A stretch of DNA of 6,462 nucleotides, taken from the IMG/VR virus record IMGVR_UViG_3300000359_000035, positions 1 through 6,462 of that record. One strand, given 5' to 3'. Source of the DNA: a virus. Below the pieces are notes generated by a model that did not search any database, had not been told where the DNA came from, and saw only the letters and a program-made list of their open reading frames with translations. Below, piece by piece: positions 1 through 6,462 of this stretch (the stretch's first letter is position 1; every line of letters starts with the position of its first letter). Both the position numbers and the translations under genes were made by a program.

Positions 1-54
1 TCTATCCATGTATCCTGCTCCGATACCCGAACTCGCTAATACAATTTGTTTGAA
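1..54. repeat. Terminal direct repeat, exact copy of 6409-6462 (assembly circularisation overlap); circular genome unit = 6408 nt
   Basis: Read directly: bases 1-54 (tctatccatgtatcctgctccgatacccgaactcgctaatacaatttgtttgaa) are identical to 6409-6462. Joining the ends restores a single intact Rep ORF. Confidence 0.95.
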
Positions 55-597
55 TGTAGGGTGTTTGATATCTACTTTGAGCATATATTTTGTTATGTAA
101 TTTACGCTTTTTGAGCTGCAATATCCCCCTATAAATACAAATCCATATTTCCAGTGTTTTTTTATTAGGGCCGCTGATTTTTGTCCGAAAAATATACCAT
201 GTAAATGAATTCTGTCGTTTTGCTCTCCCAGCTCTGTAACGCACCAGTGTCTTATACTTTTCCCTGTATCTTTCCTTGCCCGTTCTAAAAACAATCTTAA
301 CGCTTTTGAGGCTATTTCGTTTGGGTTCTCTTTCCATTTTAAGCCTGTGTCTTCTTCGAGTTTCTTTATGTGATTTTCGTCTATTGTCAATGTAGTAAAG
401 TATCCGAAACTCGAGCGTAACTCCTCTTCTAATCTTACTCTCCATTCTCTTTGTTTCTCTTTTCGACATTCAATACAGCACCCGCACTTTACAGGAATGT
501 AAAGGAGCCTCCTATCTTTACAAACAGGAGGTTTTCCTTTGTTCTTTTTGTTGGGTTTATATTTTGGATTTTTGACAAAAGTAGGATATAAACACAT
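1..597 (-). CDS. Replication initiator (rolling-circle HUH endonuclease, microvirus VP4 / gene A-like), N-terminal 196 aa; the gene continues across the circular junction into 6417..5875
   Basis: Manual translation of the minus strand in the frame with codons at 597-595 ... 12-10. It reads MCLYPTFVKNPKYKPNKKNKGKPPVCKDRRLLYIPVKCGCCIECRKEKQREW...FGYFTTLTIDE...NDRIHLHGIFFGQ...VNYITKYMLKVD...ASSGIGAGY, followed by MDRLDY of the 5875..6417 ORF. It contains a Cys cluster (C-x12-C-G-C-C-x2-C) and HUH motifs I (FTTLT), II (HLHGIFF) and III (YxxKYxxK). The frame differs from the track ORF 2..469. ATG at 597 lies 1 nt after the VP2 stop (601-599). Confidence 0.88.
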   Translation of the reverse strand, partial: MCLYPTFVKNPKYKPNKKNKGKPPVCKDRRLLYIPVKCGCCIECRKEKQREWRVRLEEELRSSFGYFTTLTIDENHIKKLEEDTGLKWKENPNEIASKALRLFLERARKDTGKSIRHWCVTELGEQNDRIHLHGIFFGQKSAALIKKHWKYGFVFIGGYCSSKSVNYITKYMLKVDIKHPTFKQIVLASSGIGAGYMDR

Positions 598-598
598 G

Positions 599-1732
599 CT
601 AATATGATTCTGTGTACGTTTCAGTTGTCGCGGTTTTGCCTCTTCTCTCAGATACAGTTCTTGTTCTAGATTTTTTCCTGCGGGCCTTGAGTAACATATT
701 TACGATATTTTCTCCGAATTCTAAGCCTAAACCAAGTCTTTCATTAAAGGTTTGTTCTTCCCATCTATCGAGCATACCTTCTACTTGCTTGCGATAGGTT
801 TCTTTATCCCAATCATGTTTATCGGCAAGGGCTTCTAATTCTTCGATAGACGCTTGAAGATGTTTTATTTGCTTCTCATTCACTTCTTTATCGCTCATAT
901 ATTTTGCTGCTAGCGCAATAGCTACTGCGTTATTATAGTTTGCGGAGTCAACTCTATCTTGATAAGTGTCTTTTAAGTATTGGTTCTGGATTCTTTCATT
1001 CTCTTTTCGCCAATATTCTGTATGAGCTTCTTCACTATATTTTGTAGCTGCGGCGAATGCTTCGCTTATTTGGGCCTTTGTTAGCCCTTCTTGCATTTCT
1101 CTGAGCGATTTTAGGGCCTCAGTAGCTTCTTTTTCTGCTTTCGATAATTGAGTCAAGGCCTCTTTATAATTACCTTCCTTCAAATTAAGTTCTATTTGAG
1201 AGGCTAGCCCTTCAATTCGTTTTAAAGTTTCTTGTGTATCTACACCTCCAATTTTCTTGGCTTCTTCATTTGCCTTACTTGCTTGTGCTTCCGCCAGCGC
1301 TATTTGGGCGTCGTTCATTCTCCTTTGCTGTTCAATTTGTTGTACTTGTAATGCCATACCTACTGGATTCCCTTGCGGTTGTTCTGGAGCTGATTGATGA
1401 GCTCCACCACTTGCACCCATACCTCCTGCTCCGCTTTGTCCATACATTAATCCGACATTTAGTCCGGCGTTTTTTAGATGTCTAACTTGATTTTCCGCAT
1501 TGGTATAATCCCAGAAGTCTTTTGCATATTGTTGAGATTGAGAGGCTGCTTCTTTTTGATATTTGTTTTGTAGTGCCATGATGTTTTTGTTATATTTCCA
1601 TTGTTCATTCATAGCTCTTTGTGGGGACCAGCTTAGTCCGAATGCTTGACTTAATGCATTTCCAGCGAATCCTATTCCTTGACTTGCTGCCGCGGATCCC
1701 AATCCACTTATAAATGATGTTCCAAATCCCAT
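599..1732 (-). CDS. Minor capsid / DNA pilot protein (microvirus VP2, phiX174 H-like)
   Basis: 377-aa ORF immediately upstream of Rep. N-terminal Gly/Ala/Ser-rich segment (GLNVGLMYGQSGAGGMGASGG) followed by a long heptad-like K/E/A/L/Q-rich helical region, as in coiled-coil DNA-translocating pilot proteins. Position between MCP and Rep is typical. No SD. Confidence 0.65.
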   Translation of the reverse strand: MGFGTSFISGLGSAAASQGIGFAGNALSQAFGLSWSPQRAMNEQWKYNKNIMALQNKYQKEAASQSQQYAKDFWDYTNAENQVRHLKNAGLNVGLMYGQSGAGGMGASGGAHQSAPEQPQGNPVGMALQVQQIEQQRRMNDAQIALAEAQASKANEEAKKIGGVDTQETLKRIEGLASQIELNLKEGNYKEALTQLSKAEKEATEALKSLREMQEGLTKAQISEAFAAATKYSEEAHTEYWRKENERIQNQYLKDTYQDRVDSANYNNAVAIALAAKYMSDKEVNEKQIKHLQASIEELEALADKHDWDKETYRKQVEGMLDRWEEQTFNERLGLGLEFGENIVNMLLKARRKKSRTRTVSERRGKTATTETYTESY

Positions 1733-1778: not shown

Positions 1779-1824
1779 TATACATATTACTAGATAATAT
1801 ATGCTACATGCGTACCATTTTGTG

Positions 1825-1880: not shown

Positions 1881-2216
1881 TTATCCCGCCGATTCCTGTT
1901 GCGAAGAATTATCTCCTATTTCTTTCGAATCGAGGGCATTTTGTTCTTGTTGTTCGATTTTCCCGTAGTTTTTCGATTTTGCGAGATTTGCCTGGTTGAC
2001 CGCGTCCATTGCTTGTTGTGCAATATCCCATCTGTCAGTTCTGATGTTATAAGCCGGTAATACTCCGTCATCTCTATTTGTGTAAATGATTGGTGCTCCA
2101 TCTGTAATTGGTTCATTGTTCTCGGTAACTCGTTTGACTTTTGTTTCAATGCTTTCTCCATCTTGAAATTCATAGTTTGTTTTTGGAGGTCTTGAATATA
2201 ATTTTGGTTTAATCAT
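1881..2216 (-). CDS. Hypothetical protein (111 aa) between major capsid and pilot genes
   Basis: ATG at 2216 lies 11 nt after the VP1 stop (2230-2228) and is followed 19 nt downstream by a terminator-like hairpin. No recognisable motif. A nested 85-aa alternative frame exists. Confidence 0.45.
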   Translation of the reverse strand: MIKPKLYSRPPKTNYEFQDGESIETKVKRVTENNEPITDGAPIIYTNRDDGVLPAYNIRTDRWDIAQQAMDAVNQANLAKSKNYGKIEQQEQNALDSKEIGDNSSQQESAG

Positions 2217-2227
2217 AATTGTAAGTT

Positions 2228-4306
2228 TTAAATGTTAGGAATTACTTTTGCTGACATTACTCGTCTTGGATTGACATTAAATGCTATTTGTATCCAAAAA
2301 TTTTGCGCGGTTATGTCTGTATCGGCGAAGATATTGTTGTAGAGGTGTGGAAATATGTAAGTAGTGTAGGTTTTTATATCTCCAAATATCCTATTTAAAC
2401 ACATCCAGCCCTCATTTTCGACAAGCGCAAAGTTCCCATATGTTTTATTAACATTTGTCATGTATTCAATCCATGCAGGTTGTTTACCGATTGATTTACC
2501 CGACATTGCGTAAGGTGTATTTGCGTTTACGCTTCGGTATAATCTGTCTTGAAAGCCTATACCATCAAGTTGTGGTTTATGCAGATCGTCTAGTGTCAAT
2601 AAATAATTATCCCACTCGTTGCCTTGGAAATAATCAACTCTTGGAGTGAGAGATGTGATACAAAATATGTATCCGGGTTCGTCTGCCTTGAACACAATAT
2701 TCCCTCCCTTGTGATTGGTTGCTATGCCTCTACCGGCTAATGTTCCTAATGGTTGTTCTTCGGTTCCGCTGTTGTTTACAACTTCTTGGAATTCAACTTC
2801 AAGTGAGCTACCACCGAGATATAGAGGTGTTTCGATATGATTTAATCCTCCACTTGTGTAAACGGTCTGAATCCATGCATTATACGATCCGTCGGATACG
2901 GCAATTCTGTTGAGCATAGTGTACACTTTTTTTGCGAGGTTAAGAGTGTCCAGAGTGAAACTACCTCCGCTCGTATCGATTGCTGTAATAGCGTTGATTC
3001 CTGAATCTCCGTCTATCCATTCGGTATTTACCCAGTTTGTATTGATATCGCTTTGATATGTTTTAAGTGCTAAACCAACCATTGGTTGCGAACAGCTTGG
3101 CGCTACACCATTTTTTGTCTGTACAGGTTTAAAAATATCGACTATGAACGGATCTTGTGATATATATTGGGTTCTTCCTGCTGCGAGTATATTTTCTCGC
3201 ATATCGTCGATCGTACTTAAATCATAGCTATTATATCTCGCTTCTACACTTGTAGCGAGAGAAGGTTTGTCTACATAATAATATGTTCTAAAAGTTGCTT
3301 CGGTTGGATAGAATTCAGCTTCAAGCCTATAATACTCTACTCCGGTTACGGCGTTGCTTACAGATTTTGTAATGTCTGTTAAAACGCCTGTTTCTAAGAG
3401 ATTGTTTATAGTTCCATATATTTTAATTGCTTGTTTACCCCCTACATTTCCGCCACTTCCAAGTAACCAACCTGTTTGCATGTTAATGCTTACTTCTATT
3501 TGTCCTGAATTCTGATCTTGGGTGAATGGTTTTATAGCCAATACCCAAGTTTGATAGTCTGTGTTTTTTTTAGGGTATTCACCTGTAGAATTTGCGAAAT
3601 TTTGTACACCCGTAGCGACAACAGTCCATGACTTTTTATTATCGCTGCTATTTGCAACAGTTAAGCTCATTTGTCCCTCTCCGAGGGTGCTTGCCACTTG
3701 TTTATATAAATAGTAGGTATTTCCAGATATTACGTAAAATTTAGATTCTTGTTTGTTTGCATAATAATTTTTAAAGATGTCGTAATACATCATTATTTTA
3801 ATGCAGTTGAAAGTCTTCATCTTTGAACCGTAACCTTCTAAGGTCGAGAGAGCCCTTACCCCTGTATATGCAACTAGTGAACTGGGATTGACTTCATTGA
3901 GTAGAGAGTCATTACTTCCGTCCATTTTGCTCTTATCGGTATATAGATTGTAAGGTATTGGGTACATAGGGAATTTTACTTGTTTCATATTTAGTCCTAT
4001 ATTTAATGCATTATTATGCAGCATAGCATTGTACAGTCTAATAGGACAAAAGAAGAAGTCGTTTTGTTGCTTAAAACTTCCAAACAGAGGCCCAATTGTT
4101 GGGTGTGTTAGTGTGTGACACCTAGTTTGGATAGGAAAGGTATCTCCTGGTAATATTAAATGATATAATGTAGGAATTAGAGATCCTACGGCCGCTGATG
4201 TTCGACAAACACTACTAAGGTCGTGCGTACTACGGTTATAATTATTTAACCGCGTCATCATTTTTTTGCCACCTCCAAGGGTGTTCTTTCCAATACTGAC
4301 TTTCAT
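2228..4306 (-). CDS. Major capsid protein (microvirus VP1 / F-protein family), 692 aa
   Basis: Longest ORF in the window. N-terminal segment ...STHDLSSV...SLIPTLYHLILPGDTF resembles the conserved HDLS...EVLPGDTF start of Microviridae VP1. Size fits gokushovirus/Alpavirinae-type MCP with large insertion loops. ATG (4306-4304) overlaps the stop of the upstream ORF as ATGA. An alternative start is at MMTRL (aa 16/17). Confidence 0.88.
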   Translation of the reverse strand: MKVSIGKNTLGGGKKMMTRLNNYNRSTHDLSSVCRTSAAVGSLIPTLYHLILPGDTFPIQTRCHTLTHPTIGPLFGSFKQQNDFFFCPIRLYNAMLHNNALNIGLNMKQVKFPMYPIPYNLYTDKSKMDGSNDSLLNEVNPSSLVAYTGVRALSTLEGYGSKMKTFNCIKIMMYYDIFKNYYANKQESKFYVISGNTYYLYKQVASTLGEGQMSLTVANSSDNKKSWTVVATGVQNFANSTGEYPKKNTDYQTWVLAIKPFTQDQNSGQIEVSINMQTGWLLGSGGNVGGKQAIKIYGTINNLLETGVLTDITKSVSNAVTGVEYYRLEAEFYPTEATFRTYYYVDKPSLATSVEARYNSYDLSTIDDMRENILAAGRTQYISQDPFIVDIFKPVQTKNGVAPSCSQPMVGLALKTYQSDINTNWVNTEWIDGDSGINAITAIDTSGGSFTLDTLNLAKKVYTMLNRIAVSDGSYNAWIQTVYTSGGLNHIETPLYLGGSSLEVEFQEVVNNSGTEEQPLGTLAGRGIATNHKGGNIVFKADEPGYIFCITSLTPRVDYFQGNEWDNYLLTLDDLHKPQLDGIGFQDRLYRSVNANTPYAMSGKSIGKQPAWIEYMTNVNKTYGNFALVENEGWMCLNRIFGDIKTYTTYIFPHLYNNIFADTDITAQNFWIQIAFNVNPRRVMSAKVIPNI

Positions 4307-5008: not shown

Positions 5009-5320
5009 CTAATAAAGTTTGATTATGTCTATTTTTAATGTGTTGTCGTATTCTTCTAGTTTTCTCTTCACAAATATAGCGACTCTTTTGCAACATAGCT
5101 TAATATTTGCCTCTAATTTTGAATTATTATCGGTATCTTTAACGTCCAGGAGATATCGGTGTCCAGAGTCTTTCTCAATAACACTAGTTATGATATCTGC
5201 AAAACTTCGGTAAAAAAGCATGTCTGTACGACTTATTTCATCTTCGTTTTTACCAGGTCCTCTCACGATAAATTTGTTGTCAAAATGGCGTTTTGCTATT
5301 ATTACGTGTCTTCTTTTCAT
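5009..5320 (-). CDS. Hypothetical small protein, paralog B of a tandem pair (104 aa from ATG 5320; the track's 119-aa version starts at 5368)
   Basis: Shares ordered motifs with ORF 5322..5630: KNEDE, SGHRY, a conserved Cys, and KRK...I.KLY at the C-terminus, with similar spacing. ATG at 5320-5318 sits 1 nt after the stop of paralog A (5324-5322), so the shorter start is favoured. Confidence 0.5.
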   Translation of the reverse strand: MKRRHVIIAKRHFDNKFIVRGPGKNEDEISRTDMLFYRSFADIITSVIEKDSGHRYLLDVKDTDNNSKLEANIKLCCKRVAIFVKRKLEEYDNTLKIDIIKLY

Positions 5321-5321
5321 T

Positions 5322-5630
5322 TTAGTAAAGTTTTTTAATAGTGAGTATATAATTAGAATTTGCCGCATTGATTTTTCGCTTTAAAAGCAATGATTCTTTT
5401 TTTGAATGACAAATAATATATTTTGAATATAATTTTCCTTGTTCGTCGAATTTGCTGTATTTTAATTCATACCTATGTCCGCTTCTTTTTCTTTCTCCTT
5501 CATAAATGATTTCCCATTCTTCCGAGCATGGAAAGTTACTCCACCAGTTAATGGATTCATCTTCGTTTTTGAAATTCATTGTTAAGATGGTTTTTTTCTC
5601 AATGTGTTTTAGTAGCATAATTGTTCTCAT
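5322..5630 (-). CDS. Hypothetical small protein, paralog A of a tandem pair (102 aa); first gene after the intergenic promoter
   Basis: MRTIMLLKHIEKK...FKNEDESINWW...KRSGHRYELKY...CHSKK...KRKINAANSNYILTIKKLY. Homologous over its length to ORF 5009..5320. Preceded by a TTTG / TAnnTTTG Bacteroidetes-like promoter. Confidence 0.5.
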   Translation of the reverse strand: MRTIMLLKHIEKKTILTMNFKNEDESINWWSNFPCSEEWEIIYEGERKRSGHRYELKYSKFDEQGKLYSKYIICHSKKESLLLKRKINAANSNYILTIKKLY

Positions 5631-5657
5631 GACTTTGCTTGTTTTATTGTTACACTA

Positions 5658-5689
5658 CAAAGATACCACAGAAATCCCCTTTTTCCAAA
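5658..5689 (-). promoter_or_regulatory. Candidate Bacteroidetes sigma-A-type promoter (-33 TTTG, -7 TATCTTTG) driving the ORF102-to-VP1 operon
   Basis: Minus strand: TTTG at 5689-5686 and TATCTTTG at 5665-5658 (a TAnnTTTG match), separated by 20 nt, about 28 nt upstream of the ORF102 ATG (5630). Sits in the only sizeable intergenic region with upstream A/T-rich TTAAC repeats. No SD sequences precede any gene, consistent with Bacteroidetes. Confidence 0.4.
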
Positions 5690-5755
5690 AAAATATCCCA
5701 TTTTAACTTATGTTATTAACATATTTAACTATTGCCCGATTCCCGCAGGGAATAC

Positions 5756-5768
5756 AGCGAAACGAGCT
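5756..5768. repeat. Direct repeat copy 1: AGCGAAACGAGCT (iteron-like)
   Basis: 12/13 identical to AGCGAAGCGAGCT at 5819-5831. The CGAGC pentamer recurs at 5763, 5817 and 5826. Confidence 0.45.
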
Positions 5769-5818
5769 CCGCCGTTGAGCGTACAGAAAGCATGTAATGC
5801 TTTCCCTTATACACCCCG

Positions 5819-5831
5819 AGCGAAGCGAGCT
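5819..5831. repeat. Direct repeat copy 2: AGCGAAGCGAGCT (iteron-like; overlaps the GCGAAGC mini-hairpin)
   Basis: See copy 1. Spacing is 63 bp. Confidence 0.45.
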
Positions 5832-5874
5832 TCTGTTCTCGGCCGAAGGCCGCCAATTACTGTCTGGTATTATT

Positions 5875-6417
5875 TTAAATTTTTACAGTCCCACCCAAAG
5901 ATTCGTAATGCTCTACCGTCGCGCGCCTCCTTACCCTTTCAAATATCCACATGTTGAATTTGATGTATTCTTCTATGGCACTGTCCCATTTTTGCTTTTT
6001 CTCTTGCATAGGAAAATCGGCCTGTGACGGCAACTCTGTTAGATTTTCCGTGCTGAATTTTTCAGCTAATTTTTTAGCTTCTGCAATAGCTCGTCGTTGT
6101 TTTTCCTCTTTCCTTCTAGTTTTCATAGCATTCCACGCAATAGGATTATCTCCCATTACCTCACGTCCGTATTTTTGCCAATATTCTCTAAGGTTGTCTA
6201 TTGTTTTCCAATCGTCTGCTTTCACTTTTTCTCCATATATCCATAGTATTCCTCTATTAAGGTTATTAATCCACATTTTCTCACGCTCTTTCTCGGTGAA
6301 TATTTTGTTTTTGTAGTATTTCGGCATAGCCATTTTTGTACCGTTTCGGAACGTATAGGTAGCTACGTTGATATTCTTATAATTCTGTTTTTGCCATAAA
6401 TAATCTAATCTATCCAT
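5875..6417 (-). CDS. Replication initiator VP4, C-terminal 180 aa of the same gene (Met at 6417 is internal; 6409-6417 duplicates 1-9)
   Basis: The open frame is continuous with 10..597 when the window is circularised. It contains MPKYYKNKIF and a basic/helical tail as in microvirus Rep C-termini. Stop TAA at 5877-5875. Total Rep = 376 aa. Confidence 0.88.
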   Translation of the reverse strand: MDRLDYLWQKQNYKNINVATYTFRNGTKMAMPKYYKNKIFTEKEREKMWINNLNRGILWIYGEKVKADDWKTIDNLREYWQKYGREVMGDNPIAWNAMKTRRKEEKQRRAIAEAKKLAEKFSTENLTELPSQADFPMQEKKQKWDSAIEEYIKFNMWIFERVRRRATVEHYESLGGTVKI

Positions 6418-6462
6418 GTATCCTGCTCCGATACCCGAACTCGCTAATACAATTTGTTTGAA
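6409..6462. repeat. Second copy of the 54-bp terminal direct repeat
   Basis: Identical to 1-54. Confidence 0.95.

Follow-up and report, generated by a model that had tools for sequence, protein, structure and literature searches.

The 6,462-nucleotide (nt) stretch of viral DNA analysed here, IMG/VR record IMGVR_UViG_3300000359_000035 (hereafter the window), carries at its two ends the parts of a gene for a replication initiation protein (Rep). These parts very probably make up one 376-amino-acid (aa) rolling-circle Rep of the HUH type, split only by the linearisation of a circular genome. Within the Rep gene, on the same strand and in another reading frame, lies a complete open reading frame (ORF), referred to below as the nested ORF. 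Judged by sequence comparison, it is quite probably an accessory overprinted gene with its own ATG, a very basic product of ~109 aa and a weakly constrained sequence. That the nested frame is open in most relatives cannot be put down to chance, to composition, to a bias in dinucleotides or to shared ancestry. With moderate confidence, it can be regarded as a new accessory gene over Rep motifs I and II in a Bacteroidales-associated clade of gut microviruses, where the frame is selected to stay open, its sequence drifts and the ORF is repeatedly lost.

The full Rep frame is missing from the mechanical ORF list because it runs off the window end. The window is bounded by an exact 54-nt direct terminal repeat, which leaves a circle of 6408 nt, and joining minus-strand positions 597..10 to 6417..5875 yields a protein of 376 aa that ends in TAA and contains no internal stop. 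The cut falls between Y196 (12..10) and M197 (6417..6415). More than 100 proteins in a collection of 5.8 billion, mostly 376 aa long, match this protein at 81-88% identity and ~99% coverage, one of them (P0030) under the name 'Replication associated protein [Microviridae sp.]'. The interior of 22 IMG/VR contigs holds this ORF uninterrupted, and all 25 close relatives align contiguously across the junction. Since the homologs are intact at this point, the join can be taken as real and the split as an artefact of linearisation. The original prediction, which had placed a Rep gene across the window boundary, is thereby upheld by the terminal repeat, the open frame and the full-length homologs, and translation of the rejoined sequence gives one uninterrupted 376-aa ORF. 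Its account of the ORF list was accurate in part: a 155-aa ORF and a C-terminal fragment are indeed reported, the latter being the 180-aa ORF at 5875..6417 that begins at the internal Met197, but the 155-aa ORF lies on the minus strand and is '+2' only relative to Rep. It is highly improbable that the join is instead an artefact of assembly, in which case the window would be a linear fragment, a concatemer or a piece of prophage and the Rep halves would come from different genes. Assemblers do also generate 54-nt terminal overlaps, and the support here comes from assembled sequence, not reads; yet the protein is uninterrupted in the mid-contig copies and the database proteins, all 25 relatives are contiguous over the junction, and the gene order closes to a standard microvirus circle.

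On sequence grounds, Rep is a superfamily-I HUH rolling-circle initiator of the Microviridae VP4/gpA type. Residues 66-174 match Pfam PF23343 (REP_ORF2-G2P) with a score of 51.6 bits, well above the cutoff of 27.8 (E=1.2e-13), and residues 1-327 match PHROG 942, 'replication initiation protein' (E=3.8e-36). A tblastn search of GenBank phages aligned aa 1-312 in one piece with the replication initiator of Dulem virus 224 at 61.5% identity, and matches were found in 872 phage records, nearly all of them Microviridae. Both the PHROG and the tblastn alignment cross the junction unbroken, and the joined protein has the Rep-family relatives (PF23343, PHROG 942 and annotated replication initiators) on which the predicted join depended. 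In profile comparisons with hhalign, aa 25-204 were aligned to ORF4 of Chlamydia phage 2 (Chp2) with 97.5% probability (E=8e-12), and a match to phiX174 gpA was obtained with 88.5% probability (E=2.7e-6). All three HUH motifs were in register in both alignments, to a gokushovirus VP4 and to gpA, and they lie where the original prediction put them, at aa 64-74, 129-138 and 166-174. Their cores, FTTLT (67-71), HLH (131-133) and YITKY (167-171), have the order and spacing seen in superfamily-I HUH Reps.

The alternating catalytic tyrosines of gpA are Y343 and Y347. The predicted catalytic tyrosines of Rep, Y167 (99..97) and Y171 (87..85), align with them at the same spacing, in agreement with the pair previously proposed in YITKY, and both are invariant among 18 Reps of 37-80% identity. 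C2, C38, C41, C44, F67, T71, H131, H133, K170 and K174 are likewise invariant in this set. Rep has cysteines at positions 2, 26, 38, 40, 41 and 44, and the N-terminus MCLYP is conserved in all Rep relatives. The N-terminal cysteine cluster noted earlier is thus confirmed as C38, C41 and C44 plus C2, and these four residues probably form a small metal-binding module for DNA recognition. Nothing observed speaks seriously against the family assignment, but structure prediction lent it no independent support: the AlphaFold model of Rep, built on a shallow alignment (31 sequences of 80-88% identity), reached a predicted local distance difference test score (pLDDT) of 47. A Foldseek search of the PDB with this poor model gave no hit at E<=0.001, its weak hits being enriched in HUH Rep nuclease domains, and a sequence search of the PDB with Rep returned nothing, even at E<=10.

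From the comparison with phiX174 gpA, we infer the metal binding and chemistry of Rep as follows. The His131-x-His133 pair would hold a divalent metal, and either Tyr167 or Tyr171 would nick the viral strand of the double-stranded replicative form at the origin, becoming linked to the 5' phosphate. The host replisome would then extend the 3' end in rolling-circle synthesis. After one round, the second tyrosine would cut the regenerated origin and the first-bound end would be religated, a step that would release a circular single strand.

The nested frame was compared in 23 Rep genes of 77-96% protein identity. In this frame, +2 relative to Rep, a stop codon arises only where the third base of a Rep codon is T and the next two bases are AA, AG or GA. 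Such stops are closely spaced ahead of Rep codon 45 and again beyond codon 160, and codons 46-159 are stop-free in 18 of the 23 relatives. Synonymous-codon shuffling of Rep gave a longest +2 open stretch of 51 ± 14.5 codons, and the observed 155 codons were reached in 1 of 5000 shuffles (P about 2e-4). Openness was further measured, for every gene and both alternative frames, as the longest stretch that is stop-free in at least 75% of the sequences. By this measure the +2 frame of Rep reaches 114 codons, against 14-52 for all other genes and frames.

The base composition at the third positions of Rep shows how the stops are avoided. Within codons 46-158, T was found at only 14 of 528 third positions (2.7%) followed by the stop-forming AA, AG or GA. 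Conversely, its frequency was 48% before AC or AT, where the same TpA step creates no stop, and 22.5% before GC, GG or GT, where the same holds for TpG; before a first base C or T it was 27%. Over codons 160-376, T was present at 30% of third positions even in the stop-forming contexts. The stop-risk third positions of the nested region vary freely among A, C and G; from this and the contrasts between contexts it follows that the avoidance of T is specific to stop codons and to Rep codons 46-158. A site-level Fisher test of the avoidance gave P=4e-8. The T frequencies in the non-stop contexts also rule out a general avoidance of TpA or TpG dinucleotides as the cause of the missing stops. At the relevant four-fold sites, A (which gives Lys or Arg) makes up 71% of the non-T bases versus 58% elsewhere, a weak excess that is uncorrected for phylogeny. 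The ratio of nonsynonymous to synonymous substitution (dN/dS) is uninformative for the nested frame, as the nested synonymous sites in a +2 overlap are the second codon positions of Rep.

Retention of the open frame through shared ancestry was evaluated by simulation on a neighbour-joining tree, starting from a fully open ancestor, with the rate of T gain fitted to the non-risk sites of the same region. Over 20,000 runs a mean of 0.66 of the 23 tips remained open, with a maximum of 7, so that P for 18 or more is below 5e-5; with a four-fold slower rate, P for at least 18 open tips is 0.0017. The third positions of Rep are close to saturation among the relatives. The nested frame is also open, with the same end, in the more distant lineages L051/L078 (on a Phocaeicola contig; 69% identity over aa 1-200), L082 (64%) and L075. 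When a second clade was sought around the Phocaeicola-type Rep (L051), IMG/VR and a metagenome scan yielded hardly anything outside the clade of the window, and a further protein search with eight contig look-ups yielded isolated members of deeper branches. Still more distant Reps of 40-50% identity, namely L003 (Dulem virus 213), L004 (Tortoise microvirus 13) and L047, have long +2 ORFs of their own over the HUH domain, of 120, 143 and 155 codons respectively (shuffle P<=0.0025), an ORF that the majority of distant Reps lack. Overprinting on the HUH domain of Rep may therefore be recurrent.

Of the 18 open sequences, 17 have an ATG (445..443) formed by the codons for Rep E51/W52; the other, L014, has GTG. 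In most open sequences the nested frame stops at Rep codon 160/161, giving a product of 109 aa. The window and two relatives (L007 and L008) are without this usual stop and read on to 147-155 aa. The stop is lost there through Rep N161S together with TGC for C160, and the products, 22-38 residues longer, overlap motif III. The nested product has an isoelectric point of 11-12, a net charge of +20 to +43, a Lys/Arg content of 30% and no transmembrane segment, and in most genomes that have the nested ORF no other ORF of at least 100 aa is strongly basic. Its function is a tentative guess at nucleic-acid binding. Literature searches returned no description of this nested ORF.

A number of observations weigh against a functional nested gene. 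It had no match in Pfam or PHROG, and a search of 5.8 billion proteins recovered a single hit, this very ORF as called on an 825-bp contig fragment; a single-sequence AlphaFold model was uninformative (pLDDT 39). Synonymous diversity of Rep over the overlap is not reduced, at 1.07 times the expected value, and the nested product retains a mean identity of 55% where Rep retains 85%, its amino-acid sequence being barely constrained. The basic composition is largely a free by-product of frame-shifting a Lys/Glu/Arg-rich gene. Of the 23 close relatives, 5 have 1-5 stops in the frame, and many deeper lineages likewise have it broken, among them Dulem virus 224, Microvirus mar60 and several intermediate ones. 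As the broken relatives are scattered over the tree, the nested ORF must have been lost at least four times. Lineages without it were checked for a replacement basic protein and none was found; since they have no substitute, the nested product is not essential for packaging, and a role as an essential DNA-condensing or packaging protein is ruled out. All this could be accommodated if the 155-aa ORF were non-functional, a Lys/Glu/Arg-rich and T-poor region open by accident and reported as Rep runs off the window end, and by the criterion of PMC9865509 its LRS content, about 29%, is in the range typically shown by non-coding ORFs. It is plausible that the ORF appears in the gene track only because the true Rep frame leaves the window. 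As an account of the open frame itself, this reading is nevertheless unlikely. Openness of this length is rare among shuffled sequences and is approached by no other gene or frame; T is avoided only in stop-forming contexts and only over codons 46-158; and ancestry does not account for the 18 open frames. The stops gathered by the unconstrained lineages are what neutrality looks like, and a high LRS content (36.8%) is also found in a published overprinted gene internal to Rep (PMC9865509). The designation as an artefact frame in the original prediction is accordingly not borne out by the stop-free relatives, the 2.7% T in stop contexts or the simulation.

The nested frame might alternatively be read by -1 slippage of ribosomes on Rep, which would attach about 110 basic residues to the Rep N-terminus with its Cys cluster. 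Ribosomes slipping by -1 on Rep would land in precisely this frame, the stretch free of stops starts directly behind the Cys cluster, and the frame is open further upstream in L051, L013, L014 and L020. By inspection of the sequence, however, no canonical X XXY YYZ heptamer occurs at Rep codons 43-60, the sole A AAA AAA site (codons 145-147) being close to where the nested ORF ends, and the conserved start codon at 445..443 (ATG, or GTG in L014) fits independent initiation. Slippage is consequently improbable, and an accessory overprinted gene translated from its own start codon remains the favoured reading.

Table 1. Positions of the features discussed, in window numbering.
Feature	Position	Strand	Remarks
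Rep 5' part, aa 1-196	10..597	-	ATG 597..595; Pfam PF23343, PHROG 942
Rep 3' part, aa 197-376	5875..6417	-	TAA 5877..5875; full-length 376-aa homologs
C38-x2-C41-x2-C44 cluster, putative metal-binding knuckle	466..486	-	invariant, with C2 (594..592), to 37% identity and in Chp2 ORF4
HUH motif I, FGYFTTLTIDE, aa 64-74	376..408	-	aligns with gpA FDTLTL; F67, T71 invariant
HUH motif II, RIHLHGIFFG, aa 129-138	184..213	-	aligns with gpA RLHFHAV; H131, H133 invariant
Motif III, NYITKYMLK, aa 166-174	76..102	-	aligns with gpA Y343-V-A-K-Y347; K170, K174 invariant
Nested ORF, 155 aa, Rep frame +2 (= -1)	2..469	-	ATG 469..467, TAG 4..2; overlaps motifs I-III
Conserved core of nested ORF, 109 codons	119..445	-	from conserved ATG 445..443 to usual stop at Rep codon 160/161 (window 118..116)
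Conserved block, about 70 nt, Rep codons 313-336	5998..6069	-	synonymous sites almost invariant, 0.26-0.58x
GGTACGCATGTAGCATATATTATC	1793..1816	- (coding strand only)	single copy; intergenic gap between 111-aa gene and pilot gene (region 1733-1910)
Capsid gene	4306..2228	-	Phage_F / PHROG 514
111-aa protein (~110-aa class)	2216..1881	-	position in gene order
Pilot protein gene	1732..599	-	PHROG 8689
Terminal repeat, copy 1	1..54		identical to 6409..6462; marks linearised circular genome
Terminal repeat, copy 2	6409..6462		identical to 1..54

The window is a complete, circular Microviridae genome of 6408 nt, opened inside the replication gene and given as the complement of the coding (viral) strand. 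It has the small circle of that family, with an F-type jelly-roll capsid protein, a pilot protein and Rep all encoded on the window minus strand, as is every gene of the window. On the coding strand the capsid gene is followed by the genes for the 111-aa protein, the pilot protein and Rep, then by 244 nt of non-coding DNA and small ORFs, an order common to the window, Dulem virus 224, Microvirus mar60, Dulem virus 213 and Tortoise microvirus 13. Whole-genome megablast against GenBank phages gave no match, and Rfam matched no known RNA family anywhere in the window. A single nucleotide separates the pilot stop codon (TAG 601..599) from the Rep ATG (597..595), a spacing that suggests translational coupling of Rep to the pilot gene. 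Two regions are hypervariable: the small-ORF region after Rep (5009-5630), with 13-40% of relatives identical per position, and the middle of the capsid gene (about 3100-3900), with 36-44%, the latter presumably encoding surface loops. The 111-aa gene also contains an ORF in another frame, of 85 aa at 1916-2173 on the minus strand, in frame +1. This frame has the lowest off-frame stop density in the genome, 0.034 per codon, and its conserved open stretch of 52 codons is the second-longest, the signal being far weaker than that of the Rep +2 frame.

The most conserved DNA of the genome is found in the intergenic region before the pilot gene, at about 1770-1900, with up to 99.7% identity in 25 relatives. 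Of the 25 close relatives, 24 have the element GGTACGCATGTAGCATATATTATC in this gap, always as a single copy on the coding strand, and so do the four named viruses, whose Reps are 43-62% identical, and the L051, L078 and L079 lineages; no occurrence is expected by chance. Strong single-strand hairpins flank the element (fold z=-6.5). From its conservation and position, GGTACGCATGTAGCATATATTATC is a candidate for the Rep origin, a complementary-strand origin or another cis element. A second conserved block lies inside the Rep gene (Table 1) and is confined to the window's own clade. This block holds a hairpin, GCTGAA-AAA-TTCAGC (6066..6052), with compensatory variants GCCGAA/TTCGGC in three sequences and GCTGAG/CTCAGC in one. 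The intergenic element and the Rep-internal block are both candidates for the nick site. In phiX174 a hairpin is recognised for complementary-strand synthesis (PMC9865509), and by analogy the conserved hairpins could serve that synthesis instead of nicking. The 244-nt non-coding region after Rep (5631-5874) is unusually G+C-rich for the genome and about 70% conserved among relatives. As single-stranded DNA it forms several short perfect hairpins with 3-nt loops (z=-3.5), among them GGCCT-TCG-..., GAAAGCAT-TAC-ATGCTTTC and ATTCCC-TGC-GGGAAT.

Relatives of Rep were found in contigs of Phocaeicola (62% identity, on a contig of 44 kb), Dysgonomonas isolates, Paludibacteraceae and Rikenellaceae. 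Four of them (L051, L052, L054 and L082) lie in large Bacteroidales contigs, of 44 kb in Phocaeicola and of 73 and 265 kb in Dysgonomonas, and in L082 the pilot and Rep genes adjoin a bacterial gene of the CstA family, which suggests that these are integrated copies. Because of such contigs the host is probably to be sought among gut Bacteroidales, a placement based on the Rep relatives and not on the window genome itself. The virus belongs to a group of faecal microviruses. Alpavirinae are the Bacteroidales-associated microviruses that form Family 5 of Kirchberger et al. 2022 (PMC9239249). The window genome is not filed under this name here, as its nearest named records are labelled only Microviridae or Microvirus; the association with Bacteroidales holds for its Rep relatives.

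Microviruses are the classic home of overprinted genes. Members of the family other than the phiX174 group rank with the commonest phages of the gut, and to our knowledge their overprinted genes are essentially uncharted. If the favoured reading is true, the nested ORF is a young or conditionally useful overprinted gene in a regime of gain and loss, outside Bullavirinae. It combines a clean statistical signature over the most conserved part of an essential enzyme with repeated loss, and would be useful for studying the origin, maintenance and decay of overprinted genes, as well as a target for synthetic-genome work in Bacteroidales hosts. Gokushovirus genomes have been synthesised before (PMC7062461). 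The nested frame with its signature of selection is the only moderately interesting part of the Rep region. The Rep join matters only for annotation: Rep is a further member of a well-known family, near-identical proteins are already public, and the split itself is ordinary. The practical lesson is that circular phage contigs should be circularised before gene calling, as gene calling on the cut sequence loses the key gene for replication and lists pieces of it or off-frame ORFs instead. The replication origin of these phages has yet to be mapped, and the intergenic motif, kept down to 43% Rep identity, is a candidate that can be tested.

The closest named systems are Dulem virus 224, mar60, Dulem virus 213 and Tortoise microvirus 13, whose Reps are homologous over almost their full length at 43-61.5% identity. 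These faecal microviruses, like the metagenomic proteins of 81-88% identity, share with the window the MCLYP N-terminus, the Cys cluster, the three motifs, the genome size and the gene order. The C-terminal ~60 aa of the Reps of the named viruses differ from those of the window, and the +2 frame of Dulem virus 224 and mar60 is not open, unlike that of the window. ORF4 of Chp2, a VP4 of the Gokushovirinae, has in common with the window Rep the C-x2-C-x2-C arrangement, motifs I-III and a GIG after motif III, at about 26% identity over the aligned core. Gokushoviruses differ, however, in their ~4.5 kb genomes, with VP3, VP5 and ORF8 genes that are not recognisable in the window. In phiX174 gpA, which is about 27% identical to the window Rep over 147 columns, FDTLT corresponds to FTTLT, HFHA to HLHG and Y343-x3-Y347 to Y167-x3-Y171, with the following Lys shared. 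Conversely, gpA is 513 aa long, with a long N-terminal extension and without the Cys cluster, and the phiX174 origin lies inside gene A, whereas the most deeply conserved candidate element of the window is intergenic.

In phiX174 gene A, as in the Rep gene of the window, a further ORF occupies an alternative frame. Genes overprinted on Rep comprise the known B and K of phiX174 and the predicted OG63 of reekeekeeviruses (PMC9865509); overprinted ORFs outside Bullavirinae are left off the genome maps of Kirchberger et al. 2022 (PMC9239249). As a purely functional guess, the strongly basic nested product can also be set beside the small basic DNA-binding proteins of the phiX174 J and gokushovirus ORF8/VP5 type, although J is about a third as long and is not homologous to it. 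Compared with B, K and OG63, which sit in the less conserved C-terminal part of Rep, the nested ORF lies over the catalytic motifs I and II (and, in the window, III), and it is set apart by the lack of sequence similarity (it has no Pfam or PHROG match), a patchy distribution and repeated loss. In other respects it resembles them: all occupy an alternative frame of Rep, are missed by gene callers, evolve fast, have a biased composition and appear to be of the accessory type.

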